Under the pieces are notes generated by a model. It was not told the origin of the DNA. It did no database searches and was given only the letters and a program-made list of their open reading frames with translations. 64,000 nucleotides of DNA from Escherichia coli (GTDB lineage Bacteria; Pseudomonadota; Gammaproteobacteria; Enterobacterales; Enterobacteriaceae), in assembly GCF_001677475.2 (NCBI RefSeq), contig NZ_CP015229.1; one strand, 5' to 3'. Below are positions 470-41,760 of this stretch, piece by piece (the first letter of the stretch is position 1; every line of letters starts with the position of its first letter). A program made the translations under genes and the position numbers.

Positions 470-542
470 ATCCCATGTATTAGACGTCAACTAGTTTTGC
501 CGACTCGCGCCAACTATACTGGCCGCACCCTTCAGGGCGACA

Positions 543-1298
543 TCAAGTCGCGCTTGTTACTGCCTTCGCTGTCTTTTTCCTGTAGCTTTCCCCTTTCAGT
601 TCGAACATATATCCGTGATGGAGCAGCCTGTCTGCCGCAGCCACCGCCATAGTCTCATCCACGAAGATGCTGCCCCACATGCTGAACGGATGGTTACTGG
701 TTATCACCAGGCTCCCACGTTCATAGCGATGCGCTATTAACTCGAACAGCACACCCGTTTCGGCACTATCGCGTTTGACATAGCCAAGATCATCCACCAC
801 TATCACCCGGTAGCGATCCAGTTTCAGTAGCAGCTCATTCAGTTTCAACTGAGCTCTGGCTTTACGTAGTTCCTGCAACAGCTCTCCTGCGCTGTAGAAC
901 CGGGCCCGGTAGCCCTGACCTACTACGCCATCCACGATCGCTGCCGCCAGATGGCTTTTCCCCAACCCGCTGGCTCCGAACAGCAGAACGTTTTCTCCTG
1001 CATCAACCCAGTCTGTCGTTTCACAGAGTTGCCGGAACTGAGCTCCATTCAGTTCCGGCACCTGACTGAAGTCGTATTCGCTCAGCGTTTTGGCAACTGG
1101 CAACCGGGCCTCCTTTTTATAACGACGCAGTTTTTCACTCTCGCGCCACAGGAGTTCTTCATTGCATAGCGTCAGAAGATAGCGCGATGGTGTCCAGCCT
1201 TCTGCCAGCGCTCGTTTTTCCAGAGCGTGCCATTCAGCTCCAACTCGTGTCAGGCGTAGTTTACGCAGGCTATGTTCAAGGTGATGGATATTGCTCAC
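543..1298 (-). CDS. istB: IS21-family transposition helper ATPase IstB
   Basis: 251 aa ORF with Walker A motif GASGLGKSH and typical IstB length; start overlaps istA stop. Confidence 0.9.
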   Translation of the reverse strand: MSNIHHLEHSLRKLRLTRVGAEWHALEKRALAEGWTPSRYLLTLCNEELLWRESEKLRRYKKEARLPVAKTLSEYDFSQVPELNGAQFRQLCETTDWVDAGENVLLFGASGLGKSHLAAAIVDGVVGQGYRARFYSAGELLQELRKARAQLKLNELLLKLDRYRVIVVDDLGYVKRDSAETGVLFELIAHRYERGSLVITSNHPFSMWGSIFVDETMAVAAADRLLHHGYMFELKGESYRKKTAKAVTSAT

Positions 1299-2794
1299 TG
1301 CGAACCTCCCTTGCCACGCAGTAGTTGCTCATAACTGCTCAGGTTATGCTGTATCACATTGACTACCGGCAACGCCTTTTCTTTTATACCCAGGAAGCGC
1401 ATCAGCCGGTGCAGATCCACGTTTCCCGGGGTATTCAGCATCTGCTCCATACCTTTTGCCACGACTGAGATATCGTCGTATCCTGCAGCCAGTTTCAGGG
1501 CATGTACCATCAGCCTTCCTGCCATATCGGGCTCCAGATGATTACATAAGCGACGCCACAGCCTCCGCCATTCATCGTCCGGCAGGATGTCATTTCTCAG
1601 CGTTGCATGGCAGAACGCACCGGGCTTTTTTGCCAGACTGTCGATCACATGTCGGAAGTCGATACGACGGGCCCGCGTCTTCCCTTTTTCTGGTCTGACG
1701 CGAGGGCAGCTCATGACCTCGCTGCTGCCAACGTAACAGCTCAGACGATCGTCCCATAACCTGACCCGTAACAGTTGACCTACAAGCCGGGAAGGTACGC
1801 TGTAGACGACGTGCTTCACATTGATGGTACTGCTGCGACTAACCCTCACAGTCAGCTCATCATAGTCAGCACTGCGACGAAGCGGCAGCGGTTTCAGATG
1901 AAGACGTTCTTCCTTGACCAGATCCTGATTGTTACGGTTGTGCCGCATAACCTGCTGAGTGATGAAGGCCTGATATTCTTCTATGGTGCTGAAGTCGTTA
2001 CTGCCCCGCAGTATCAGCGCCTGACAGATACGCCTTTTCAGATGTCCGTGGGCACTTTCAACCGAGCCATTTTCGTGGCCCCGACCGGCATTATTGTGTA
2101 CGCCCTGCATTCCGTAGTGCTGACAGAGAGTAGCATAACGCTCAGTCAGCTCGCGGCGTCCATCTTCGCCCTGTTGTTTCCATGCTGCCCTCAGGCTGTC
2201 CGTTTTATGTTCTACCGGCACTCCGCCCAGTTGTCCGAGGGCTTCCTGCAGGCCTTCAGCCAGAGCAGAGAAGCTCTCACCACCCAGAACAACCCGCATC
2301 CAGCTCCAGTGGCTCCATTCCAGACGGAAGTGATACAACTTATGCGCCAACAACTTACCGGCGATGGTGACAACTACACCTTTCAGTTCAGTAAAGTCCG
2401 ACAGGCCTCGCAGGCCGGGCTGATGTTGCTGGCGGAACATGACCTCCTGCTCTGTACCATACTGTAGTTTCCATTCGCGAACCCGCCGTTGCATTGTTCT
2501 TCGAAGGCTGTTGGGGTACTGGCCGGGATATTTATCCTGTAGCATCTCCAGTAGAGTTGTTGGTGTCAGAGCCGGCCTCTCTTTCAACAGAGGAACAAGC
2601 ATGCTGTCCCACACAGCTTCCAGAGGATCTTTGCGTGTGCGCCAGTGCCGAACACTGTTTTTTGCCCACTCTCCTTTTTCGATCCGACGACCAGAACGGA
2701 CTGAGATACCAGCCTTCATGGCCGAGATATGCTGAGTTATACCTTTCTTACGCTGAGTCATATAGTAACTGACCTGAGAAGTATTGAGCGTCAC
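1295..2794 (-). CDS. istA: IS21-family transposase IstA
   Basis: 499 aa ORF immediately upstream of and coupled to istB; N-terminal HTH-like region and integrase-like core; family assignment by architecture. Confidence 0.85.
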   Translation of the reverse strand: MTLNTSQVSYYMTQRKKGITQHISAMKAGISVRSGRRIEKGEWAKNSVRHWRTRKDPLEAVWDSMLVPLLKERPALTPTTLLEMLQDKYPGQYPNSLRRTMQRRVREWKLQYGTEQEVMFRQQHQPGLRGLSDFTELKGVVVTIAGKLLAHKLYHFRLEWSHWSWMRVVLGGESFSALAEGLQEALGQLGGVPVEHKTDSLRAAWKQQGEDGRRELTERYATLCQHYGMQGVHNNAGRGHENGSVESAHGHLKRRICQALILRGSNDFSTIEEYQAFITQQVMRHNRNNQDLVKEERLHLKPLPLRRSADYDELTVRVSRSSTINVKHVVYSVPSRLVGQLLRVRLWDDRLSCYVGSSEVMSCPRVRPEKGKTRARRIDFRHVIDSLAKKPGAFCHATLRNDILPDDEWRRLWRRLCNHLEPDMAGRLMVHALKLAAGYDDISVVAKGMEQMLNTPGNVDLHRLMRFLGIKEKALPVVNVIQHNLSSYEQLLRGKGGSQ

Positions 2795-2890
2795 GCCATT
2801 TCCTGTTGGATCATGTAAATGACACTCAGGTTACAAAACCGGCCAGAATAATCGGCGCCAGGCGGACTGAGTTATTGTCGTCTCATACCC

Positions 2891-3634
2891 ATGACACAGA
2901 CTGAATCAGCGATTCTGGCGCACGCCCGGCGGTGTTCGCCTGCGGAATCGTGCGGCTTCGTGGTGAGAACGCCGGAGGGAGACAGGTATCTTCCCTGCGT
3001 GAATATCTCCGGTGAGCCGGAGGCGTATTTCCGGATGTCGCCGGAGGACTGGCTGCGGGCAGAAATGCAGGGTGAGATTGTGGCGCTGGTCCACAGCCAC
3101 CCCGGTGGACTGCCCTGGCTGAGTGAGGCCGACAGGCGGCTGCAGGTGCAGAGTGATTTGCCGTGGTGGCTGGTCTGCCGGGGGGCGATTCACAAGTTCC
3201 GCTGTGTGCCACATCTTACCGGGCGACGCTTTGAGTACGGGGTGACGGACTGTTACACGCTGTTCCGGGATGCTTACCATCTGGCGGGGATTGAGATGCC
3301 GGATTTTCATCGCGGGGATGACTGGTGGCGTAACGGCCAGAATCTCTATCTGGATAATCTGGAGGCCACAGGGCTGTATCAGGTGCCGTTGTCATCAGCA
3401 CAACCGGGCGATGTGCTGCTGTGCTGTTTTGGTTCATCGGTGCCGAATCATGCCGCCATTTACTGCGGCGACGGCGAGCTGCTGCACCATATTCCTGAAC
3501 AACTGAGCAAACGAGAGAGGTATACCGACAAATGGCAGCGACGCACACACTCCCTCTGGCGTCACCGGGCATGGCACGCATCTGCCTTTACGGGGATTTA
3601 CAACGATTTGGCCGCCGCATCGACCTTCGTGTGA
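2891..3634 (+). CDS. K: Lambda-like tail assembly protein K (JAB/MPN metalloprotease-like plus NlpC/P60-like domains)
   Basis: 247 aa ORF; JAMM motif HSHx7Sx2D (HSHPGGLPWLSEAD); C-terminus matches lambda K as recalled; overlaps I by about 100 nt as in lambda; alternative internal start at 3035 corresponds to the classical 199-aa lambda K. Confidence 0.85.
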   Translation: MTQTESAILAHARRCSPAESCGFVVRTPEGDRYLPCVNISGEPEAYFRMSPEDWLRAEMQGEIVALVHSHPGGLPWLSEADRRLQVQSDLPWWLVCRGAIHKFRCVPHLTGRRFEYGVTDCYTLFRDAYHLAGIEMPDFHRGDDWWRNGQNLYLDNLEATGLYQVPLSSAQPGDVLLCCFGSSVPNHAAIYCGDGELLHHIPEQLSKRERYTDKWQRRTHSLWRHRAWHASAFTGIYNDLAAASTFV

Positions 3635-4203
3635 AAACGGGGGCCGAAGCCATCCGGGCGCTGGTCATGCAGATCCCGGCGTTTCGTCAGAAACTGAGCG
3701 ACGGCTGGTATCAGGTACGGATTGCCGGGCGGGACGTCAGCACGTCCGGGTTAACGGCGCAGTTACATGAGACTCTGCCTGATGGCGCTGTGATTCATAT
3801 TGTTCCCAGAGTCGCCGGGGCCAAGTCAGGTGGCGTATTCCAGATTGTCCTGGGGGCTGCCGCCATTGCCGGATCATTCTTTACTGCCGGAGCCACCCTT
3901 GCAGCATGGGGGGCAGCCATTGGGGCCGGTGGTATGACCGGTATCCTGTTTTCTCTCGGTGCCAGTATGGTACTTGGTGGTGTGGCGCAGATGCTGGCAC
4001 CGAAAGCCAGAACTCCCCGTACACAGACAACGGATAACGGTAAGCAGAACACCTATTTCTCCTCACTGGATAACATGGTTGCCCAGGGCAATGTTCTGCC
4101 TGTTCTGTACGGTGAAATGCGCGTGGGGTCGCGGGTGGCTTCTCAGGAGATCAGCACGGCAGACGAGGGGGACGGTGGTCAGGTTGTGGTGATTGGTCGC
4201 TGA
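3532..4203 (+). CDS. I: Lambda-like tail assembly protein I
   Basis: 223 aa ORF, same length and position as lambda I; Gly/Ala-rich hydrophobic C-terminal half. Confidence 0.85.
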   Translation: MAATHTLPLASPGMARICLYGDLQRFGRRIDLRVKTGAEAIRALVMQIPAFRQKLSDGWYQVRIAGRDVSTSGLTAQLHETLPDGAVIHIVPRVAGAKSGGVFQIVLGAAAIAGSFFTAGATLAAWGAAIGAGGMTGILFSLGASMVLGGVAQMLAPKARTPRTQTTDNGKQNTYFSSLDNMVAQGNVLPVLYGEMRVGSRVASQEISTADEGDGGQVVVIGR

Positions 4204-4263: not shown

Positions 4264-7200
4264 ATGGGTAAAGGCAGCAGTAAGGGGCATACCCCGCGCG
4301 AAGCGAAGGATAACCTGAAGTCCACGCAGTTGCTGAGTGTGATCGATGCCATCAGCGAAGGGCCGGTTGAAGGTCCGGTGGATGGATTAAAAAGCGTGCT
4401 GCTGAACAGTACGCCGGTGCTGGACAGTGAGGGGAATACCAATATCTCCGGTGTCACGGTGGTGTTCCGTGCAGGTGAGCAGGAGCAGACACCGCCGGAG
4501 GGATTTGAATCCTCCGGCTCCGAGACGGTGCTGGGTACGGAAGTGAAGTACGACACGCCGATTACCCGGACCATCACGTCTGCAAACATCGACCGTCTGC
4601 GCTTTACCTTCGGTGTGCAGGCACTGGTGGAAACCACCTCAAAGGGGGACCGGAATCCGTCGGAAGTCCGCCTGCTGGTTCAGATACAACGTAACGGTGG
4701 CTGGGTGACGGAAAAAGACATCACCATTAAGGGAAAAACCACCTCACAGTATCTGGCCTCGGTGGTGGTGGGTAACCTGCCGCCGCGCCCGTTCAGTATC
4801 CGGATGCGCAGGATGACGCCGGACAGCACTACAGACCAGCTGCAGAACAAAACGCTCTGGTCGTCATACACCGAAATCATCGATGTGAAACAGGGCTACC
4901 CGAACACGGCACTGGTCGGTGTACAGGTGGACTCGGAGCAGTTCGGCAGCCAGCAGGTGAGTCGTAATTATCATCTTCGCGGGCGCATTCTGCAGGTGCC
5001 GTCGAACTATAACCCGCAGACGCGGCAATACAGCAGTATCTGGGACGGAACGTTTAAACCGGCATACAGCAACAACATGGCCTGGTGTCTGTGGGATATG
5101 CTGACCCATCCGCGCTACGGCATGGGGAAACGTCTTGGTGCGGCGGATGTGGATAAATGGGCGCTGTATGTCATCGGCCAGTACTGCGACCAGTCAGTGC
5201 CGGACGGCTTTGGCGGCACGGAGCCGCGCATCACCTGTAATGCTTACCTGACAACACAGCGTAAGGCGTGGGATGTGCTCAGTGATTTCTGCTCGGCGAT
5301 GCGCTGTATGCCGGTATGGAACGGGCAGACGCTGACGTTCGTGCAGGACCGGCCGTCGGATAAGGTGTGGACCTATAACCGCAGTAATGTGGTGATGCCG
5401 GATGACGGCGCGCCGTTCCGCTACAGCTTCAGCGCCCTGAAGGACCGCCATAATGCCGTTGAGGTGAACTGGATTGACCCGGACAACGGCTGGGAGACGG
5501 CAACAGAGCTTGTGGAGGACACGCAGGCCATTGCCCGTTACGGTCGTAACGTCACGAAGATGGATGCCTTTGGCTGTACCAGCCGGGGGCAGGCGCACCG
5601 CGCCGGGCTGTGGCTGATTAAAACGGAACTGCTGGAAACGCAGACCGTGGACTTCAGCGTGGGTGCCGAAGGGCTTCGCCATGTGCCGGGCGATATCATT
5701 GAAATCTGCGATGATGACTATGCGGGTATCAGCATCGGTGGTCGCGTGCTGGCGGTGAACAGCCAGACCCGGACGCTGACGCTCGACCGTGAAATCACGC
5801 TGCCATCCTCCGGCACCACTCTGATAAGCCTGGTTGACGGAAATGGCAATCCGGTCAGCGTGGAGGTTCAGTCCGTCACCGACGGCATGAAGGTGAAAGT
5901 GAGCCGTGTTCCTGACGGCGTTGCAGAATACAGCGTGTGGGGGCTGAAGCTGCCGACGCTGCGCCAGCGCCTGTTCCGCTGCGTGAGTATCCGTGAGAAC
6001 GACGACGGCACGTATGCCATCACTGCCGTGCAGCATGTACCGGAAAAAGAAGCCATCGTGGATAACGGGGCGCACTTTGACGGCGACCAGAGCGGCACGG
6101 TGAATGGTGTCACGCCGCCAGCGGTGCAGCACCTTACCGCCGAAGTCACCGCAGACAGCGGGGAGTATCAGGTACTGGCCCGCTGGGACACGCCGAAGGT
6201 GGTGAAGGGCGTGAGCTTCATGCTTCGCCTGACCGTGGCAGCGGACGACGGCAGTGAGCGGCTGGTCAGCACAGCCCGGACGACGGAAACCACATACCGC
6301 TTCAGACAACTGGCGCTGGGGCGTTATATGCTGACGGTCCGGGCGGTAAATGCCCGGGGGCAGCAGGGTGATCCGGCGTCGGTATCGTTCCGGATTGCGG
6401 CACCGGTAGCGCCTGTCACTATTGAACTGATACCGGGGTATTTTCAGATAACGGCGGTCCCGAAACTGGCTGTATATGACCCGACGGTACAGTTTGAGTT
6501 CTGGTTATCGGAAAAGCGGATTATCGATATCAGGCAGGTTGAAACCACAGCCCGCTATCTTGGTACGGCGCTGTACTGGATAGCCTCCGGACCGGATATT
6601 GAGCCGGGCAATAATTATTATTTTTACGTTCGCAGTGTGAATACCGTCGGCAAATCGGCATTTGTGGAGGCTGTTGGCCAGCCGGGTAACGATGCTGAGA
6701 AATATCTCCATTTTTTTGAAGGGAAAATAAACAGCACCCTGCTGGGGCAGGAGCTGAACGATCGTATTAATGCCTCGGCATTGCGCAGTGAAGTTGAGCA
6801 ACTGGAGGATGAGATCAATCAGCAGATAGAGAGTGATATTGCTGAAGTGACCCAAAAAATCGGGGAGACAGAAAACAGCCTCACGCAGCTGGTTGCGAAA
6901 AAAAATGATGAGCTGTCACTGGGTATATCACAGGTGAGCCAGAGAGTGGATAACGTCAGCAGCGAACTCACGCAGACGGTCAGTCAGAGTAATGAGGAGA
7001 ATGCACGCCAGATAGCGCAGGTTCGCCAGTATGTGGATCAAAAAAGCAGTGAAATCATGACGACAACGGACCAGAAGCTGGGAGATCAGGAGGCCACCAT
7101 CCAGCAGATACAAAAGGTTCAGACGGACACCAGTAATAACCTGAACAGTATGTGGGCCGTGAAACTGCAGCAGATGCAGGATGGTCGCCTTTATATTGCG

Positions 7201-7965
7201 GGTATCGGTGCCGGTATTGAGAACACCCCCGACGGCATGCAGAGTCAGGTGCTGCTGGCGGCAGACAGGATTGCGATGATTAATCCTGCAAATGGCAACA
7301 CAAAACCGATGTTTGTTGGTCAGGGTGATCAGATATTCATGAATGAAGTGTTCCTGAAATATCTGACGGCTCCCACCATTACCAGCGGCGGTAATCCTCC
7401 TGCATTTTCCCTGACACCGGACGGAAAGCTGACCGCTAAAAATGCCGATATCAGCGGTAACGTGAATGCGAACTCCGGGACGCTCAACAACGTCACGATA
7501 AATGAGAACTGTCAGATTAAGGGGAAACTGTCAGCCAACCAGATTGAAGGCGATATTGTCAAAACGGTCAGCAAGTCTTTCCCCCGCACGAACAGTTATG
7601 CCAGTGGCACCATCACGGTAAGAATCAGTGATGATCAGAAATTTGACCGGCAGGTCATGATACCGCCAGTGTTGTTCCGTGGTGGTAAGCATGAGAATTT
7701 CAACAGTAATAACCAACAGTCATACTGGTATTCAACCTGCCGGTTAAGAGTGACCCGCAATGGTCAGGAGATTTTTAATCAGTCCACGACGGATGCTCAG
7801 GGCGTATTTTCCTCAGTTATAGATATGCCTGCCGGACAGGGGGCGCTGACACTGACATTCACCGTATCTTCATCAGGAGCGAATAACTGGACACCAACAA
7901 CCAGTATCAGCGATCTGCTGGTTGTGGTGATGAAGAAATCCACAGCAGGTATCAGTATCAGCTGA
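4264..7965 (+). CDS. J: Lambda-like tail tip / host specificity protein J (1233 aa) with divergent C-terminal receptor-binding region
   Basis: N-terminal about 800 aa match lambda J as recalled ([21 protein letters not shown]...); C-terminal third diverges and is longer. Confidence 0.9.
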
Positions 7966-7982
7966 ATTTTATAACCCATAAC

Positions 7983-8008
7983 GGGCGTCAGAAATGACGC
8001 CTTTTTTA
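7983..8008 (+). terminator. Rho-independent terminator after J
   Basis: Stem GGCGTCA/TGACGCC with GAAA loop followed by TTTTTT. Confidence 0.6.
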
Positions 8009-8031
8009 TTGCAGAAAAGCGAGAGGTAATT

Positions 8032-8631
8032 ATGCGTAAACTTTATGCCGCCATTTTGTCCGCAGCCATTTGTCTGGCCTTATCCGGTGCGCCTGCATGG
8101 GCGTCTGAACATCAGTCCACGCTGAGCGCGGGGTATCTTCATGTCTCGACGAACGTTCCCGGCAGCGATGATCTGAACGGGATTAACGTGAAATACCGTT
8201 ATGAGTTTACGGACACACTGGGTATGGTGACGTCATTCAGCTATGCAGGAGACAAGAATCGCCAGCTGACCCGTTACAGCGATACCCGCTGGCATGAAGA
8301 TTCCGTTCGTAACCGCTGGTTCAGCGTAATGGCGGGGCCGTCTGTGCGCGTGAATGAATGGTTCAGCGCGTATGCGATGGCGGGTGTGGCTTACAGCCGT
8401 GTGTCGACTTTCTCCGGGGATTATCTCCGCGTAACTGACAATAAGGGGAAAACGCACGATGTGCTGACCGGAAGTGATGACGGTCGCCACAGCAACACGT
8501 CTCTGGCGTGGGGAGCTGGCGTGCAGTTTAACCCGACCGAATCCGTGGCTATTGATATTGCTTATGAAGGCTCCGGCAGTGGCGACTGGCGCACTGACGG
8601 TTTCATCGTGGGTGTCGGTTATAAGTTCTGA
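8032..8631 (+). CDS. lom: Lom-like outer membrane protein (Ail/Lom/PagC family)
   Basis: 199 aa ORF with signal peptide (MRKLYAAILSAAICLALSGAPAWA) and terminal aromatic residue (YKF); lambda lom position downstream of J. Confidence 0.85.
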   Translation: MRKLYAAILSAAICLALSGAPAWASEHQSTLSAGYLHVSTNVPGSDDLNGINVKYRYEFTDTLGMVTSFSYAGDKNRQLTRYSDTRWHEDSVRNRWFSVMAGPSVRVNEWFSAYAMAGVAYSRVSTFSGDYLRVTDNKGKTHDVLTGSDDGRHSNTSLAWGAGVQFNPTESVAIDIAYEGSGSGDWRTDGFIVGVGYKF

Positions 8632-8657
8632 TTAGCCAGGTAACACAGTGTTATGAC

Positions 8658-8686
8658 AGCCCGCCGGGTTCAGGCGGGCTTTTTTG
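8658..8686 (+). terminator. Rho-independent terminator after lom
   Basis: Stem AGCCCGCC/GGCGGGCT followed by TTTTT. Confidence 0.65.
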
Positions 8687-8696
8687 TGGGGTGAAT

Positions 8697-10787
8697 ATGG
8701 CAGTAAAGATTTCAGGTGTCCTGAAGGACGGAGCGGGTGAGCCTGTCGTAAACTGTGCGATTGAATTGCGAGCCAGAAGAACCAGTCCGACAGTTGTGGT
8801 TAATATTGTGGCAACCTGTCTTACGGGAAGTGATGGCGGGTATACTATTAATGCTGAGCCGGGATTTTATGATGTATTTTTGTCCCGCTCAGGGCATCCT
8901 CCTGTAAAGGCGGGGGAAATTTATGTTGCACCGACAGATGAGCCGGATACGCTGAATGCTTTTCTGGATGCACCAAAGGAGGGTGATTTACGCCCTGAGG
9001 TAATGAAGCGTTTTGAGGAAATGGTAAATACCGTTGTTCGCTTGTCTGAGCAGGTGGTCAGTGACAGGGAGAGAGCAGAAACAGCTGCTGATGATGCAAT
9101 CAATGCAGCAACATCTGCGGCGGTTAGTAAGGATGAGGCAGAAGAGCTAAAAAATCAGACACAGCAGAGCGCCGAAGCTGCAGCCGGAAACGCACAGCAG
9201 ACGGCACAGGATGTGACGACAACCGCAACGGCCCGTGATGATGCGGAACGTTTTGCGGGTGAGGCAGAAAACAGCGCACAGTCATCAGGCACAGCGCGGG
9301 ACGAATCAGTCGATGCCGCCGAACGCGCCCGCCTTTATCATAATGCCGCATCATCAGCAGCGACCAGTTCAGAACTGTCGGCAAATGCGGCGCTGGGGCA
9401 CAAAAACAGTGCCGCCGAATACGCCCGACAGGCTAAAGCCAGCCAGGATGCAGGTGCAGACAATGCGCAGGAAGCGAAACAGTACAGGGATGAGGCGCAG
9501 CAGATAGTTGATGACCTGAATGCAACAAATGCCTCCACGACAGAAAAAGGTCTGGTGCAACTCTGTAGTGATACGGACAACGACAGCGAGGAACTGGCTG
9601 CCACGCCAAAGGCTGTCAAAGACGTCATGGACGAGGCGAAAACAAAAGCGCCACTGGACAGTCCGGCCTTCACCGGCACCCCAACCACCCCAACCCCACC
9701 GGATGATGCCGCCGGTCTGGAAGCAGCGAACGCAGCGTTTGTGCGCAAACTGCTTGCTGCGCTGGTTGGCTCATCGCCGGAAGTTCTGGACACCCTGAAC
9801 GAGCTGGCAGCGGCGCTGGGCAATGACCCGAACTTTGCGACGACAATCACAAACGCGCTGGCAGGCAAACAACCGCTTAATGACGTCTTAACGGCAATCA
9901 GCGCACTGACGCAACGGGCAGATAATCTTCTGTACTTCAATACAGACGGGAATGCCTCACTGTCTCTGCTGTCAGAGAAGGGCCGCGCATTACTGGCGCA
10001 TGACACGGCTGAAGCCATGCGCACGGAGCTTGAGCTGAACGCGGCTGCGACGATGGAACCCCAGAGTGATATCCGTGACCGCACACCGGGCAGGCTGGCC
10101 CTGTCCGGGATGTATGGGTTTGGACAGGCATTCACCAGCACTGACGCTCTGGCGTTTGAGGGGCTGTCTGATTTCGTTGAGTGGTTGAAGAAAGTCACGC
10201 CGGGGCGGTATGCGGTCAGTATTACAGACTCCTCGCAACTGCTTACCGGTACCACGCAATTTAACGGCATTATTGATGTGATGTGGTCACCGTACGCCAA
10301 CAGTGAATCCGACACAGTCCGCAAATTTAAAACCCTGATGTGCTACAACCAGTATTATCAGGGTGAACACTGTATTCACTATATGCAGTACCGGTACAAC
10401 GACAGCGATAACAGCTGGAACATGTCATCGCGGGTAGTTGTATACGACGGAGATTCACTGGCGTACCTGCTGTCCAGGATGGCGGGCTCAGGCTCATATT
10501 ATAAATACCCGGCCGTTGGTGTGCCGATTATGGCGGCATATCAGGGGGAGAGTTTTGGTGCAGATGCGTCTCTGGGGCTCGGTGATATTGTGCCGGGTTC
10601 CCGTCTTGGCCCTCTGGCTATGAGTGCACGGGTTAGCGATACAGGGACATACGCATCCTCACCGCAGGTTGTGATTGGCGGTGCTGGTGAATACAACTTC
10701 CCCGGTCGTTACACGGCGCTTTCGGGGACCCGCATTAGTCACGATACAACGCGTGGCTATATCGGTCTTTTTGTACGCATTGAGTAA
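8697..10787 (+). CDS. stf: Prophage side tail fibre protein (Stf-like)
   Basis: About 696 aa ORF (ATG at 8697; the ORF track starts at GTG 8691); Ala/Gln/Glu-rich fibrous central region; followed by tfa. Confidence 0.8.
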   Translation: MAVKISGVLKDGAGEPVVNCAIELRARRTSPTVVVNIVATCLTGSDGGYTINAEPGFYDVFLSRSGHPPVKAGEIYVAPTDEPDTLNAFLDAPKEGDLRPEVMKRFEEMVNTVVRLSEQVVSDRERAETAADDAINAATSAAVSKDEAEELKNQTQQSAEAAAGNAQQTAQDVTTTATARDDAERFAGEAENSAQSSGTARDESVDAAERARLYHNAASSAATSSELSANAALGHKNSAAEYARQAKASQDAGADNAQEAKQYRDEAQQIVDDLNATNASTTEKGLVQLCSDTDNDSEELAATPKAVKDVMDEAKTKAPLDSPAFTGTPTTPTPPDDAAGLEAANAAFVRKLLAALVGSSPEVLDTLNELAAALGNDPNFATTITNALAGKQPLNDVLTAISALTQRADNLLYFNTDGNASLSLLSEKGRALLAHDTAEAMRTELELNAAATMEPQSDIRDRTPGRLALSGMYGFGQAFTSTDALAFEGLSDFVEWLKKVTPGRYAVSITDSSQLLTGTTQFNGIIDVMWSPYANSESDTVRKFKTLMCYNQYYQGEHCIHYMQYRYNDSDNSWNMSSRVVVYDGDSLAYLLSRMAGSGSYYKYPAVGVPIMAAYQGESFGADASLGLGDIVPGSRLGPLAMSARVSDTGTYASSPQVVIGGAGEYNFPGRYTALSGTRISHDTTRGYIGLFVRIE

Positions 10788-10801
10788 TAAGGAAATAAGA
10801 C

Positions 10802-11380
10802 ATGAAAATCAGAGCGGTGAAAGGCATCAGAAACGCGCATTATCTTGAAAATGGTGCGGTTGACTGCGAGGTGTTATTTGAAGGTGAAACGGAGTTCGTC
10901 CTGTATACCGCCATACAGGATGATATGGCCCCGACAGGCCAGCATGTCTGGCAGGAGCTGCAAAGCGGGAAATGGGGCGAAATCGCCCCGTTCACCGTCA
11001 CGCCGGAACTTATTGCAGCGGCAAAGGATGCCAAAAGGCGGGAAATTGAGGCATGGCGCGACAGTCAGGAAAACGTTGAGTTTATTTTCACGTTTGATGG
11101 CCGTCGTTTTGATGGCGGAAAAACCTCGCAGTCACGCCTTGCCCCCGTGGTTGCAACAGCACAGGCCGGACTGCTTCCGGAGGGATTTTTCTGGACTGAT
11201 GCGGATAATAATAACGTCGTACTGACCAGGGAGAAACTTATTGCGCTGAACGATGCCATGATGGTGGCCATGGTGGCGGAGGGCTTTAAAATCCACGAAC
11301 GTCAGCGGGAGATGAAAGAGGAACTGAGCAGCCTGGAGGATTTACGCTCAATCAGAGCGATGGCGATTAGCAGTAATTAG
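10802..11380 (+). CDS. tfa: Tail fibre assembly protein (Tfa-like chaperone)
   Basis: 192 aa ORF immediately downstream of stf; Tfa-like length and position. Confidence 0.8.
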   Translation: MKIRAVKGIRNAHYLENGAVDCEVLFEGETEFVLYTAIQDDMAPTGQHVWQELQSGKWGEIAPFTVTPELIAAAKDAKRREIEAWRDSQENVEFIFTFDGRRFDGGKTSQSRLAPVVATAQAGLLPEGFFWTDADNNNVVLTREKLIALNDAMMVAMVAEGFKIHERQREMKEELSSLEDLRSIRAMAISSN

Positions 11381-11470
11381 CGGTCAATTCTGGGCTCTTT
11401 GTCTGCTCCTTCACCGTCTGGAATTGTGTGTCAATTAGCCTGGAATTAATCGGGTTCAGATTGTTTTGTT

Positions 11471-11513
11471 GTGGCAAAATTGGGACAAAAGGGGCAAAAA
11501 TGGGGCAAAAAAA
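11471..11513. repeat. Four tandem approximately 10-bp GGGGCAAAA-like units (phased A-tracts)
   Basis: GTGGCAAAAT / TGGGACAAAA / GGGGCAAAAA / TGGGGCAAAAAAA read directly from the sequence, helically phased. Confidence 0.7.
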
Positions 11514-11805
11514 GAGTAGGTTATTGTGGTTTATTGTAGTTGCTGATATGTTTTAATTCATTGAAAATGAAATAAAATACTTATGAGTCAGATGGTTGCA
11601 ATTTTTGTCCTTACTTGTTCAGGTTGTATTGTTCTTTCTTACTAATTTCTTGATTTTGCGACATTTAAAAGCGACTCAATTCGTTATATGGCATCAGAAG
11701 AGTATGCGTCATGCCGGAATGCCCAGCATAAGAAATCTGATATAAAAACAGTGGCGTGTATGGTACGGATTAGAGGGGAAAATGTCAGCACATTTGCGAA
11801 ATGAA

Positions 11806-13548: not shown

Positions 13549-13775
13549 TGAATAAATCCTTTAGTTATTTTATTTGCCTTTTATCCCCATTTCGGGGAGT
13601 GAAAACATCCTAAAGGAGAAGTTCAGTTAGCCGATAAATATCATTTGTTACGCCTTAAGTAAAACCTTAATCAAATAATTCCTCTGAAATGACAATAAGT
13701 CTTGTGAATGTATCGAAGATAATACATACAAAATAAAAATTATACTTTTAATTTGCTATACGTTATTCTGCGCGG

Positions 13776-13884
13776 GTTATATGCCTTTATTGTCACAGAT
13801 TTTATTTTCTGTTGGGCCATTGCATTGCCACTGATTTTCCAACATATAAAAAGACAAGCCCGAACAGTCGTCCGGGCTTTTTTT
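13776..13884 (+). ncRNA. micC: MicC small regulatory RNA (Hfq-dependent, represses ompC)
   Basis: Sequence GTTATATGCCTTTATTGTCACAGATTTTATTTTCTGTTGGGCC...CCCGAACAGTCGTCCGGGCTTTTTTT matches recalled MicC including the terminator hairpin; ompN-ydbK intergenic position. Confidence 0.9.
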
Positions 13885-13913
13885 TAGAATTGGATAATCC
13901 TTATCCAGAGCAT

Positions 13914-16900
13914 TTAATCGGTGTTGCTTTTTTCCGCTTTTCCGGCCATTTGTGCCAGGAAGTCATAGCGTTTTTGCAAATCAGCTGCGGCATCTTTCCA
14001 TAACTGTTCTGCCACTTCTGGCTGCTGCGAATTCAGACGACGGAAACGCTGCTCGTGAAGTAACGTTTCTTCCAGTGCTTCTGACGGCGGGCGTGAATCC
14101 AGCGCCAGCGGCAGTTTGCCTTCATCGGCACGACGCGGATCAAAGCGATATAGCGGCCAGAAGCCGGTAGCAGTGAGTTGGCGCATCTGGTCGTGACTGA
14201 GTGCCAGATCGTAACCATGCTCTTCACACGGGCTATAAGCGATGATCAGCGATGGCCCCGGATACGCTTCCGCTTCCTGAATCGCTTTCACCGTCTGGTT
14301 GAGCTGCGCGCCGAGAGAAATCTGCGCCACATAAACATGACCGTACATCATCATACTGACGCCAAGATCTTTACGCGCTTTACGTTTGCCGTGCTCGCCG
14401 AACTTAGTTACTGCACCCAGCGGTGTCGCTTTCGACGCCTGACCACCGGTGTTGGAATAGCATTGCGTATCCAGCACCAGAATGTTGATGTTTTCCGTCA
14501 AACTCAATACATGATCCAGACCGCCAAAGCCGATATCGTAAGCCCAGCCATCACCACCAATCAGCCAGATTGATTTTTCCACCAGTGCATCTGCGTCACG
14601 TAGCAGTTCATGTGCTTCGGCAACATCGTTGAGTTGCTGGCGTAAAGCTGCAACCTGCTCACGACGAACCTCTGGCGTAGCGTCTGATTTCAACGCCGTC
14701 AGTAATTCCGTCGGGATTTTATCGGCAAATTGATCCAGCAGACGAAGCACGCGGACACGGTGTTGATCGACCGTCAGGCGGAAACCAAGGCCAAATTCGG
14801 CGTTATCTTCAAACAGCGAGTTCGCCCATGCCGGCCCACGACCGTTGGCATCGGTGGTATACGGTGTAGAGGGCAGGTTACCGCCATAAATTGAAGAACA
14901 GCCGGTGGCGTTAGCGATCAACATCCGGTCGCCATAGAGCTGAGTCAGCAATTTAATATACGGCGTCTCGCCACAACCGGAGCAAGCACCTGAATATTCA
15001 AACAGCGGTGTAATCAGCTGCGATGTACGAATATCAATACGTTCCAGTTTGCTACGGTCGATTTCTGGCAGGTTGAGGAAGAAATCGTAATTGATTTTCT
15101 CTTCTTCGACATGTTCCAGGCGCGACATCATATTGATGGCTTTAATCTCTGGATTCTGACGGTCTTTCGCCGGGCAAACTTCGACGCACAGGTTACAACC
15201 GGTGCAATCTTCCGGAGCCACCTGCAAGACATATTTCTGCCCGCGCATATCACGCGATTTCACATCCAGCGAATGCAGGCTGGCAGGGGCGTTTTCCATC
15301 GCTTCAGGCGGTACCACTTTTGCGCGAATAGCTGAGTGTGGGCAAGCGGCGACGCAGTGGTTACATTGGGTACAGAGTTCCTCTTTCCAGATGGGGATCT
15401 CTTCGGCGATATTGCGTTTTTCCCAGCGCGTGGTGCCCATCGGCCAGGTGCCGTCTGGCGGCAGCGCCGAAACGGGGAGGGCATCACCAAGCCCGGCGAG
15501 CATCGCAGCGGTTACGGTTTTCACGAAATCAGGGGCGGCATCGGAAACCACTGGCGGTCGATTGGCGCTGTGCGGATTTACCGGTTGCAACGGAACTTCT
15601 TCTACGGATTCACGCGCCAGCGCCAGAGCCTGCCAGTTGCGCTCCACCAGATCCTGACCTTTGCTACTGTAACTTTTGGCAATCGCACCCTGCAATTCTG
15701 CGAGGGCGCTATCGCCAGGCAGAATTTGCGTCAGATGGAAAAAAGCCATCTGCATGACGGTATTAATACGGGCCGCCAGGCCACATTCGCGGGCGATTTT
15801 CGCTGCGTTAATCACATAGAAGCGCGCTTTTTTCTGGTTTAGCACGGCCTGAACTTCCTGCGGCAAGCGCGACCACACTTCATCTGCGCTGTACGGCGTG
15901 TTGAGCAGGAAAATGCCGCCAGGTTTTAAACGCTCAGCCATCTGATATTTATCGATAAACTGCAACTGGTGGCAGCCAACAAAATCAGCCTGGGAAATGA
16001 GATAAGCGGAACGAATCGGCTGTTCGCTCACGCGAAGGTGAGAAACCGTCAGGCCGCCCGCCTTTTTGGAGTCGTAAACAAAATAGCCCTGTGCGTACCA
16101 CGGCGTGGAATTACCGATAATCTTGATATTGTTTTTGGTCGCGGAAACGCTGCCATCACTACCAAGGCCATAAAACAAGGCTTCCAGTTTCGCCGAGTTT
16201 GGCAGGGTGTTTTCCGGCAACGGCAGTGACAGATTGGTCACATCATCGTAAATACCAACCGTAAAGCGCGCTTTCGGTTTAGCCGCGTTGAGCTCGGCAA
16301 ATACCGCCAGTACACAGTCCGGGCCAAATTCTTTGGATGAAAGACCATAGCGCCCACCAATGACACGGGGCAGGATTTCACGCTCGCCATTATTAAAAGC
16401 TTCTGCCAGTGCGGTCATCACATCCAGATAGAGCGGTTCTGCCTGGGCACCAGGTTCTTTGGTTCTGTCCAGTACCGCCACGCTGCGTACGGATCCCGGC
16501 AGAGCTTGTAGCAAGTGTTTGGCGGAGAAGGGACGGTACAGGCGAACTTTCAGCACGCCAACTTTTTCGCCACGGGTTAGCAATTCATCAACCACTTCTT
16601 CACAGGTGCCAATGGCAGAGCCCATCAGGATAATCACCCGTTCCGCTTGCGGATGCCCGTAATATTCAAACGGCTGATACTGACGACCTGTCGCGGCAGA
16701 GAAATCATTCATCGCCTGTTCAACATGGTCATAGACCGCGTTGTACCATGGGTTGGTGGCTTCGCGAGACTGGAAATAAGTGTCAGGATTGGCGGACGTA
16801 CCGCGGATCACCGGATGTTCCGGGTTGAGTGCCCGGGCGCGATGAGCATCAATTTCGGCCTGCGGCATGAGATCAAGAATCGTGTCATCGGCCAGCGGGA

Positions 16901-17438
16901 CAATTTTATTGATTTCGTGGGACGTGCGGAAACCATCAAAGAAATGAATAAATGGCACGCGGCTTTTCAGCGTCGCGATGTGCGAAATGAGAGCAAAGTC
17001 TTGCGCTTCCTGGACGTTTGCTGCACACAACATCGCGCAACCCGTCTGGCGCACCGCCATGACGTCGGAATGATCGCCAAAAATAGAGAGTGCATGTGTG
17101 GCAACGGTACGTGCCGCTACATGCAGGACAAACGGTGTGAGTTCGCCTGCCAGTTTGTACAGCGTCGGGATCATCAGCAGCAAACCCTGCGATGACGTAA
17201 ACGATGTTGAAAGAGCACCCGTCTGCAAAGCGCCATGCACGGTAGCGATAGCACCCGCTTCCGACTGCATTTCAACCACGCGTGGTGTGTCTCCCCAAAC
17301 GTTCTTCAAGCCGTTTCCGGCCCAGGCATCAGCCTGTTCTGCCATCGTGGAACTGGGGGTAATAGGGTAGATGGCGATAACTTCACTGGTGCGAAACGCC
17401 ACCGAAGCAACCGCGCCATTACCGTCAATAGTAATCAT
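13914..17438 (-). CDS. ydbK: Pyruvate:flavodoxin/ferredoxin oxidoreductase
   Basis: 1174 aa; TPP-binding and two 4Fe-4S ferredoxin motifs (CTQCNHCVAACP, CTGCNLCVEVCP). Confidence 0.95.
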   Translation of the reverse strand: MITIDGNGAVASVAFRTSEVIAIYPITPSSTMAEQADAWAGNGLKNVWGDTPRVVEMQSEAGAIATVHGALQTGALSTSFTSSQGLLLMIPTLYKLAGELTPFVLHVAARTVATHALSIFGDHSDVMAVRQTGCAMLCAANVQEAQDFALISHIATLKSRVPFIHFFDGFRTSHEINKIVPLADDTILDLMPQAEIDAHRARALNPEHPVIRGTSANPDTYFQSREATNPWYNAVYDHVEQAMNDFSAATGRQYQPFEYYGHPQAERVIILMGSAIGTCEEVVDELLTRGEKVGVLKVRLYRPFSAKHLLQALPGSVRSVAVLDRTKEPGAQAEPLYLDVMTALAEAFNNGEREILPRVIGGRYGLSSKEFGPDCVLAVFAELNAAKPKARFTVGIYDDVTNLSLPLPENTLPNSAKLEALFYGLGSDGSVSATKNNIKIIGNSTPWYAQGYFVYDSKKAGGLTVSHLRVSEQPIRSAYLISQADFVGCHQLQFIDKYQMAERLKPGGIFLLNTPYSADEVWSRLPQEVQAVLNQKKARFYVINAAKIARECGLAARINTVMQMAFFHLTQILPGDSALAELQGAIAKSYSSKGQDLVERNWQALALARESVEEVPLQPVNPHSANRPPVVSDAAPDFVKTVTAAMLAGLGDALPVSALPPDGTWPMGTTRWEKRNIAEEIPIWKEELCTQCNHCVAACPHSAIRAKVVPPEAMENAPASLHSLDVKSRDMRGQKYVLQVAPEDCTGCNLCVEVCPAKDRQNPEIKAINMMSRLEHVEEEKINYDFFLNLPEIDRSKLERIDIRTSQLITPLFEYSGACSGCGETPYIKLLTQLYGDRMLIANATGCSSIYGGNLPSTPYTTDANGRGPAWANSLFEDNAEFGLGFRLTVDQHRVRVLRLLDQFADKIPTELLTALKSDATPEVRREQVAALRQQLNDVAEAHELLRDADALVEKSIWLIGGDGWAYDIGFGGLDHVLSLTENINILVLDTQCYSNTGGQASKATPLGAVTKFGEHGKRKARKDLGVSMMMYGHVYVAQISLGAQLNQTVKAIQEAEAYPGPSLIIAYSPCEEHGYDLALSHDQMRQLTATGFWPLYRFDPRRADEGKLPLALDSRPPSEALEETLLHEQRFRRLNSQQPEVAEQLWKDAAADLQKRYDFLAQMAGKAEKSNTD

Positions 17439-17711
17439 ATGACACCCTTACATTGCGCAAATGAGGGGCGCACGAAATTGCTGCGCGCCCAGTAGTAATC
17501 TTTCAATTTTAGCAAATGGCTTTCTTCTGCATTTTCGCTTTTGTGTCCCCCACATCAGCGTAATGAATGTTTTGATCAAACAGAGGGCAAAAAAATAGCC
17601 ATAAAAAAGTAAAAATGCGGGGCAATGCGCAGGACAGCTCTCGACGTCGCCCTCTGTGCTGCCTATTATTTATGGCGGTGTCGTTTGGCTTGAAGATCAG
17701 AGGAAGAAAAG

Positions 17712-17978
17712 ATGCGAGCAGCGTTTTGGGTAGGGTGTGCCGCTTTATTGTTGTCGGCGTGTAGTAGTGAACCTGTTCAGCAGGCGACTGCGGCGCACGT
17801 AGCGCCAGGTTTAAAAGCGTCGATGTCCAGTAGTGGAGAAGCAAATTGTGCAATGATCGGCGGTTCGCTTTCTGTTGCCCGTCAACTGGATGGTACGGCG
17901 ATTGGGATGTGTGCATTACCCAACGGCAAACGCTGTAGCGAACAGTCACTTGCCGCCGGGAGCTGTGGCAGCTATTAA
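17712..17978 (+). CDS. ydbJ: Small putative lipoprotein (DUF333 family)
   Basis: 88 aa with lipobox LLLSAC, RBS AGAGGAAG upstream; K-12 synteny. Confidence 0.8.
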   Translation: MRAAFWVGCAALLLSACSSEPVQQATAAHVAPGLKASMSSSGEANCAMIGGSLSVARQLDGTAIGMCALPNGKRCSEQSLAAGSCGSY

Positions 17979-41716: not shown

Positions 41717-41760
41717 CGTCCTGATGCTGGACGTTCTAATTTTTAGCATGTGATACCTAA

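Follow-up and report, generated by a model that had tools for sequence, protein, structure and literature searches.

In the stretch analysed here, a lambda-like prophage occupies the Rac site of Escherichia coli, and its host-range module consists of two genes: stf, encoding a side tail fibre, and a downstream gene encoding a DUF4376 protein. We read this pair as a fixed, non-invertible host-range module in which the DUF4376 protein serves the fibre as a chaperone, and give this reading a probability of about 85%. The module is already known, as nearly identical copies have been annotated in further E. coli genomes. All positions refer to the window, namely the whole analysed DNA of 64,000 nucleotides.

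Upstream of stf lie the prophage tail genes L, K, I, J and lom, of which J (4264-7965) belongs to a lambda-like tail operon and lom (8032-8631) is placed between J and stf. The gap between lom and stf contains a hairpin resembling an intrinsic terminator on the plus strand (8658-8690), with an 8-bp stem including seven GC pairs followed by the T-run TTTTTTGTGGG; the equivalent position in phages mEp460 and Ayreon is annotated as "terminator". The late operon upstream of stf is interrupted by an IS21-family element on the minus strand (476-2888; IstB-like gene 543-1298, transposase gene 1295-2794), which separates the tail genes L and K. In mEp460-like phages the two flanking sequences adjoin without interruption, and records of Klebsiella phages contain copies of the element with 85.8% identity. 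The insertion may stop late transcription, leaving the module possibly unexpressed in the source strain. At the other side, phage DNA stops ~230-260 bp past the stop codon of the DUF4376 gene, where the right end of the prophage (11465-11640, without strand assignment) comprises an arm with GGGGCAAAA repeats and an attR core at ~11610-11640, corresponding to the Rac (ttcA/ttcC) site. Homology with K-12 Rac and phage Rac-SA53 picks up again at 11486, and both the attB of Rac-SA53 (7056-7081 of locus L002) and K-12 ttcC align to ~11614-11664. The chromosome beyond attR carries uspF, ompN, MicC and ydbK.

The stf gene occupies positions 8697-10787 on the plus strand, with an ATG at 8697 and an alternative GTG start at 8691. 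It encodes 696 residues followed by a stop codon, which bears out the intact gene of about 696 codons proposed in an earlier sequence-only reading of this DNA. The assignment is based on Pfam and PHROG matches and on annotated copies, 93-99% identical, in other E. coli genomes; the full-length protein matches PHROG 2636 "tail fiber protein" (1.5e-178), whereas NCBIfam has no model matching either Stf or the DUF4376 protein. Stf starts with MAVKISGVLKDG, resembling lambda Stf and K-12 StfR, and its N-terminal tail-attachment domain (residues 1-134; 8697-9098, plus strand) matches Pfam PF08400 phage_tail_N with 139.1 bits (cut-off 26.6; 1.2e-40). Moreover, residues 1-92 match the "Tail fiber protein" of PDB 9e7m (3.9e-21). 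The PF08400 domain, together with the position after J and lom, identifies the protein as a lambda-type Stf.

The N-terminal domain leads into an Ala-rich shaft (residues ~115-275; 9040-9521, plus strand), which is defined by composition, Ala periodicity and PHROG homology. It contains 27% Ala, and the sum of Ala, Gln, Glu and Ser is at least 50% in each 40-residue window. This stretch had been placed at residues 150-330 and taken as plain low complexity; both points need revision, as Ala recurs with a period of 3.5 residues (power 2.35, compared to a shuffle 95th percentile of 1.40), with autocorrelation peaks at lags 3, 4, 7, 11, 14, 21 and 28. Because this periodicity is of the heptad type, the shaft is probably an α-helical coiled coil. 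In addition, it shows homology to shaft regions from other fibres (PHROGs 4128 and 17582). The following segment (residues 280-409; 9534-9923, plus strand) is a conserved repeat and collar-like region, which harbours a Pfam Phage_fiber_2 match at residues 280-319 and a Pro/Thr linker at residues 320-340. Residues 256-321 match the "Tail fiber protein S" of PDB 5yvq, and residues 339-409 match the "Tail collar fibers, gp4" of PDB 9d93. At the nucleotide level, the segment shares 79-85% identity with two places in tail3 of Rac-SA53.

The C-terminal part of Stf forms a predicted β-rich knob (residues ~480-696; 10134-10784, plus strand), the probable receptor-binding domain. Comparison of homologues showed that this is the most variable segment of the fibre, which fits receptor binding by the knob and agrees with the proposal that the C-terminal part probably defines specificity. 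The matches of the structural model of the C-terminus are weak, and the top ones are all to phage receptor-binding proteins; the knob most likely binds the receptor. The models are of the monomer alone, and Stf is presumably a trimer. Homologues of the knob are often misnamed "shikimate transporter, partial" in public records, which is an annotation error.

The second gene (10802-11380, plus strand) starts 14 bp after stf, with a ribosome-binding region of GGAAAT/AAGGA, and encodes a protein of 192 residues. The sequence-only reading had listed it as an intact tfa; the reading frame is indeed intact, but the product is a DUF4376 protein rather than Tfa. The protein matches Pfam PF14301 (DUF4376) at residues 73-177 with 69.3 bits (cut-off 25; 4.7e-19) and belongs to PHROG 1141. 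The Caudo_TAP domain (PF02413) of the Tfa family, to which TfaR, lambda Tfa and Mu U belong, is absent from it at E-values up to 0.01 in Pfam. BLASTP against TfaR gave an E-value of 0.89, and tblastn of TfaR against the 64-kb window returned nothing at E below 0.04. The AlphaFold2 model of the protein (mean pLDDT 97.1) has three N-terminal β-strands, a helical body and β-hairpins. Structural similarity search against BFVD returned DUF4376 proteins from diverse phages, whereas the sequence search against PDB gave nothing useful, with an E-value of 0.25 to an unrelated VP1.

The DUF4376 domain is carried by 1,592 homologous clusters, and a DUF4376 gene follows a homologue of the fibre C-terminus at a distance of 6-15 bp in every phage record that matches both (Rac-SA53, phiP27, SerU-LTIIb, Av-05, vB_Apl-pPE4 and the 18-1-2 group). 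V22 gp27 and A5 gp9 are DUF4376 fibre chaperones that have been studied by experiment (PMC7289586, PMC10579305), and such chaperones were proposed to remain on the fibre as caps, with fibre-chaperone heterohexamers being predicted (PMC10579305). Both are encoded directly downstream of the fibre gene, have a similar size (195-239 residues) and share the Pfam domain, and their described parts, namely the N-terminal β-strands, the helical body and the β-hairpins, appear to be present in our model. However, they are too distant for matches by phage tblastn, their fibres differ, and the chaperone activity has been shown experimentally in these distant Alteromonas phages only, not in E. coli. By analogy to these proteins, the DUF4376 protein is most likely a fibre folding chaperone or cap.

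The same gene pair is annotated in further E. coli prophages, four of which serve as examples (NZ_CP169309, NZ_CM169999, NZ_CP013663 and NZ_AP042570), at 93-99% nucleotide identity and of equal lengths (696 and 190-194 residues), and three of the four also share the order J-lom-stf-DUF4376. As in the window, chromosomal DNA follows the pairs without further phage genes and no invertase is present, whereas the integration sites are different: beside prfC, beside tRNA-Ser/hya and at one further site. The GB089 copy has a knob of 64-88% identity. The exact junction between the DUF4376 gene and the Rac attR occurs in two of the 5,426 complete E. coli genomes. A comparable arrangement at the same integration site, with the same attachment arm, is that of tail3 and tail4 in Escherichia phage Rac-SA53 (KU052037) and of the related RM9088 prophage, which likewise have no annotated invertase. 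In Rac-SA53, the C-terminal domain of a long fibre is homologous (39% identity), and a DUF4376 protein (54%) follows directly at the right end. Nevertheless, this fibre is 1,061 residues long compared to 696 here, and these two phages possess a baseplate and two fibre sets, in contrast to the lambda-type tail (L, K, I, J and lom) and single fibre in the window.

K-12 Rac shares the chromosomal site and, at 97-98% identity, the lom-stf junction up to stf codon ~12. From there to 128 bp before attR the two diverge, which indicates the replacement of a module. Comparison with stfR and tfaR, which the sequence-only reading had suggested, gave a partial correspondence: the N-terminal domain of StfR is 50% identical to that of Stf over residues 1-123, and a short shaft/repeat stretch is 39% identical, but the C-terminal half of the 1,120-residue StfR is unrelated to Stf, and there is no relationship between TfaR and the DUF4376 protein. 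The genes pinR, ynaE and ynaM of K-12 are missing from the window.

Din-type invertase switches, such as Pin of prophage e14, Gin of Mu and Cin of P1, likewise involve the C-terminal specificity part of a fibre and a downstream helper gene. The defining parts of such a switch, namely an invertase, crossover sites and an alternative cassette in inverted orientation, were all found in e14, whereas all three are absent here. Searching the whole 64 kb by tblastn, with the left part of the prophage lying outside the window and being covered through the relative L008, we obtained a best E-value of 2.8 for PinR and no match for YnaE. No AAACCNNGGTTT-like crossover core with up to one mismatch exists between 7315 and 27703, and the longest inverted repeat is of 20 nt at 80%. 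Nor are there minus-strand reading frames for an inverted alternative fibre C-terminus or helper gene, the only long one there being the antisense artefact described below. Identical searches in e14 recovered both pix sites with their cores and an inverted repeat of 21 nt at 95%. These window searches thus support the earlier statements that no invertase follows the fibre genes and that the fibre is fixed in one orientation. The contrast drawn with K-12 Rac holds for gene content, namely pinR, but not for switching, as pattern and repeat searches of stfR-tfaR in K-12 Rac revealed neither a Din-type crossover core nor a flanking inverted repeat. Because the crossover sites are missing around stfR-tfaR, pinR looks like an orphan there; our literature search found no paper joining pinR, the Rac prophage and invertase. 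Moreover, in nine other loci (L001, L002 and L005-L011) the fibre and DUF4376 genes are the last phage genes, without an invertase. The missing invertase is therefore normal for this module and not a loss.

This distribution bears on the idea that an ancestral invertible segment and a pin-type invertase were deleted, freezing the fibre in one orientation, which the sequence-only reading implied and which we consider already largely refuted and thus very improbable. In K-12 Rac, pinR-ynaE-ynaM (1.84 kb) does separate tfaR from the shared attachment arm, whereas ~105 bp of unrelated sequence occupies this place here. However, the unrelated fibre C-terminus and chaperone indicate that the module was replaced as a whole rather than deleted within, no remains of an invertase, a crossover site or an inverted tfa or stf sequence are left, and the crossover sites are missing from K-12 Rac as well. 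In addition, Rac-SA53 and the RM9088 prophage are Rac-type phages whose gene complement is far more complete, and both still terminate in the fibre and DUF4376 genes and lack an annotated invertase. An even smaller chance attaches to the minus-strand reading frame at 9338-10324, opposite Stf residues 214-543, being a genuine overlapping gene. It could encode 328 residues and stays open in copies of 98-99% identity, and its open run of 334 codons is attained by just 4.1% of synonymous-codon shuffles of stf. Yet it lies in the antisense frame that has its third codon positions in common with stf, and the protein sequence and codon usage of stf alone predict a longest open run of 216 codons on average (sd 58) in this frame. 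The product is rich in Ala and Ser, as expected of a strand lying opposite GCN- and GAN-rich codons. In the 93%-identical locus L007 it is shortened to an open run of 212 codons, while the sense frame is kept at 696 residues. As shuffles attain its length and a homologue breaks it, the reading frame is an artefact. This was the earlier view as well, although the Ala-rich stretch invoked as its cause explains a small part only: the frame overlaps that stretch by ~60 residues and extends well into the C-terminal half of Stf.

For the second gene, the main competing interpretation is that the DUF4376 protein is a permanent adhesin at the fibre tip that itself contacts the receptor, similar to gp38 of T2-type phages. 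Such a role is in line with the name "tail fiber protein" given to homologues in PHROG 1141 and several GenBank records, and with the retention as a cap and the heterohexamers put forward for DUF4376 chaperones (PMC10579305). On the other hand, the protein is 95-100% conserved across loci whose knobs differ by 12-36%, which counts against an adhesin, as such a protein should show greater variation than the knob, and the V22 counterpart was described as a chaperone. We therefore regard this interpretation as unlikely, albeit the least improbable of the three.

Returning to the fixed fibre-chaperone pair, we propose that the N-terminal lambda-type domain of Stf docks on the tail tip, followed by the putative coiled-coil shaft with its Ala core, the conserved repeat/collar segment and the β-rich knob that would bind the receptor. 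Similar to the chaperones of Alteromonas phages, the DUF4376 protein most likely aids the trimerization and folding of the knob, and it may remain there as a temporary cap. As the final gene pair ahead of attR, the module is not, and in its present form never was, invertible. The specificity of the fibre would shift via recombinational exchange of knob and chaperone cassettes among phages, rather than via site-specific inversion.

Accordingly for annotation, the second gene should be named a candidate DUF4376 fibre chaperone instead of tfa, and the missing invertase is not to be taken as a loss; beyond correct annotation, the module matters little. DUF4376 proteins, the chaperone or cap role of which has been tested in marine phages only, are very common beside the fibres of E. 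coli prophages.

The window is E. coli chromosomal DNA whose first ~11,640 nt form the right-hand end of a lambda-like prophage, in which the tail genes L (29-469), K (2891-3634), I (3532-4203), J (4264-7965) and lom (8032-8631) are followed by the side tail fibre gene stf and then by a DUF4376 gene. Downstream of the prophage lie uspF, ompN, MicC (13773-13893) and ydbK, the same neighbours that Rac has in K-12. Compared to K-12, everything from stf codon ~12 to 128 bp before attR, the right attachment site, is replaced. The match to K-12 Rac and phage Rac-SA53 starts again at 11486, within an arm with many GGGGCAAAA repeats; ~11614-11664 corresponds both to the attB annotated for Rac-SA53 and to the K-12 pseudogene ttcC. 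This places the prophage end ~230-260 bp past the stop codon at 11380. In the attachment arm (11465-11610), which is conserved in K-12 Rac and Rac-SA53, direct repeats resembling GGGGCAAAA occur three or four times, in addition to a 15-nt inverted repeat (11483-11497 and 11596-11610); these are probably arm sites for integrase or excisionase. From 13655 to 54623, as far as compared, the window and K-12 are collinear and 96-98% identical, apart from a gap at 41717-41731, where ~9 kb of K-12 comprising the ydbA autotransporter pseudogene with IS2 and IS30 copies is missing, probably along with the tiny ynbG.

The stf ORF runs from the ATG at 8697 to 10787 and encodes 696 residues, intact as the sequence-only reading had stated. 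The full protein matches PHROG 2636 “tail fiber protein”, and its N-terminal start MAVKISGVLKDG is that of StfR, the fibre of K-12 Rac, and of the fibre N-terminal domain in PDB 9e7m. Pfam assigns residues 1-134 to the prophage tail fibre N-terminal domain and residues 280-319 to a Phage_fiber_2 repeat, whereas residues 339-409 match PDB 9d93 (“Tail collar fibers, gp4”). The Ala-rich stretch, previously placed at residues 150-330, actually spans residues ~115-275 (27% Ala) and can be aligned to the shafts of other fibres. Over residues 100-280, Ala recurs with a period of 3.5 residues (power of 2.35 against 1.40 for the 95th percentile of shuffles), with autocorrelation peaks at lags of 3, 4, 7, 11, 14, 21 and 28. 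Judged from the sequence, this periodicity points to a coiled coil with an Ala core rather than to a featureless low-complexity shaft.

The most variable part of Stf is the C-terminal β-rich knob (residues ~480-696), where the GB089 copy is 64-88% identical, compared to 94-100% over the first 400 residues. The knob family comprises 126 clusters, which, where named, come from Escherichia, Salmonella and Citrobacter; the closest relatives of the C-terminal domain in sequenced phages share at most 39% identity. The receptor-binding role proposed earlier for the knob is therefore plausible. Many public records of this domain (e.g. P0010, P0012 and P0018) are labelled “shikimate transporter, partial”, a propagated annotation error.

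The second ORF (10802-11380) is likewise intact and encodes 192 residues, but it is not the Tfa previously assumed: it contains a DUF4376 domain (69.3 bits against a Pfam cut-off of 25), no Caudo_TAP domain was found by Pfam, and comparison with TfaR, the fibre assembly protein of K-12 Rac, revealed no similarity. The predicted model is very confident (pLDDT 97.1) and shows three N-terminal strands, helices, two β-hairpins and a long C-terminal helix; its BFVD matches are DUF4376 proteins from many kinds of phages. In every phage record matching both genes, including Rac-SA53, phiP27, SerU-LTIIb, Av-05 and vB_Apl-pPE4, the DUF4376 gene starts 6-15 bp past the homologous fibre C-terminus. Two DUF4376 proteins, V22 gp27 and A5 gp9, have been studied: gp27 is required for active fibres, and the authors envisage a chaperone trimer that temporarily caps the tip of the fibre and is similar to the intramolecular chaperone domains found in T5 and K1F (PMC7289586, PMC10579305). 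Family membership and gene order suggest that the 192-residue protein is such a chaperone. DUF4376 homologues (ORF-191, 41-43% identical) also occur in the P-Eib prophage records AF151091 and AF151674-6 (P-EibA, C, D and E).

As previously noted, no invertase follows the fibre genes: tblastn of PinR, the K-12 Rac invertase, against the whole 64 kb gave a best E of 2.8. Identical searches for inverted repeats and crossover cores on the K-12 element e14, the positive control, retrieved a 21-nt inverted repeat (95% complementary, 1,797 nt apart) that flanks the invertible segment and carries the cores AAACCTTGGTTT and AAACCAACGTTT. By contrast, the best inverted repeat around the window fibre is only 20 nt at 80%, and a core search allowing up to one mismatch gave no match from 7315 to 27703, in agreement with a fixed fibre. 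However, the supposed contrast to K-12 Rac is limited to gene content. The region around stfR-tfaR (5000-10900 of the K-12 Rac locus) also lacks a Din-type crossover core and a flanking inverted repeat, so that pinR is no evidence for an invertible fibre; from its sequence context, and in contrast to pinE of e14, pinR seems to be an orphan. Moreover, the fibre-DUF4376 pair forms the prophage end in nine other loci, at three other integration sites (L005-L007), at the Rac site in Rac-SA53-like prophages (L001, L002 and L008) and in Mu/P27-like prophages (L009-L011), none with an invertase/resolvase domain near the pair. The missing invertase is therefore the normal state of this module. In one of these Rac-site prophages, that of E. 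coli RM9088 (L008, NZ_CP042298), toxin genes (14035-17747 of the locus) adjoin the lysis genes, encoding an ADP-ribosyltransferase with a subtilase-family AB5 toxin binding subunit, and a second pair annotated “enterotoxin A family protein” and “enterotoxin”.

The 328-residue antisense ORF (9338-10324, minus strand), opposite Stf residues 214-543, does exist and is an artefact, but the Ala-rich stretch formerly blamed for it is not the main cause. It occupies the antisense frame in which third codon positions fall on third positions of stf. When synonymous codons of stf were shuffled with the protein sequence kept, the longest open run in this frame averaged 216 codons (sd 58), and the observed 334 codons were attained in 4.1% of shuffles. 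The GB089 copy, which is 93% identical, has an antisense run shortened to 212 codons, with the sense ORF still at 696 residues.

A 2.4-kb IS21-family element (476-2888, minus strand), encoding a transposase (1295-2794) and an IstB-like ATPase (543-1298), sits exactly between L and K, and the sequences flanking it run uninterrupted in mEp460-like phages. All ORFs downstream of it are intact; nevertheless, the element may block the late transcript that covers K-I-J-lom-stf, in which case this strain may not produce the fibre and may carry a defective prophage. Between lom and stf, a strong terminator-like hairpin (8658-8690; seven GC pairs and a T-run) lies a few bases 5′ of the stf ribosome-binding site, and phages mEp460 and Ayreon have an annotated terminator at the equivalent site.

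Altogether, the fibre and its DUF4376 partner constitute an ordinary, already annotated host-range module, with 93-99% identical copies in RefSeq named “prophage tail fiber N-terminal domain-containing protein” and “DUF4376 domain-containing protein”. Only the precise way in which it joins the Rac attR is rare, seen in two of 5,426 complete genomes; this reflects phage mosaicism and nothing more.
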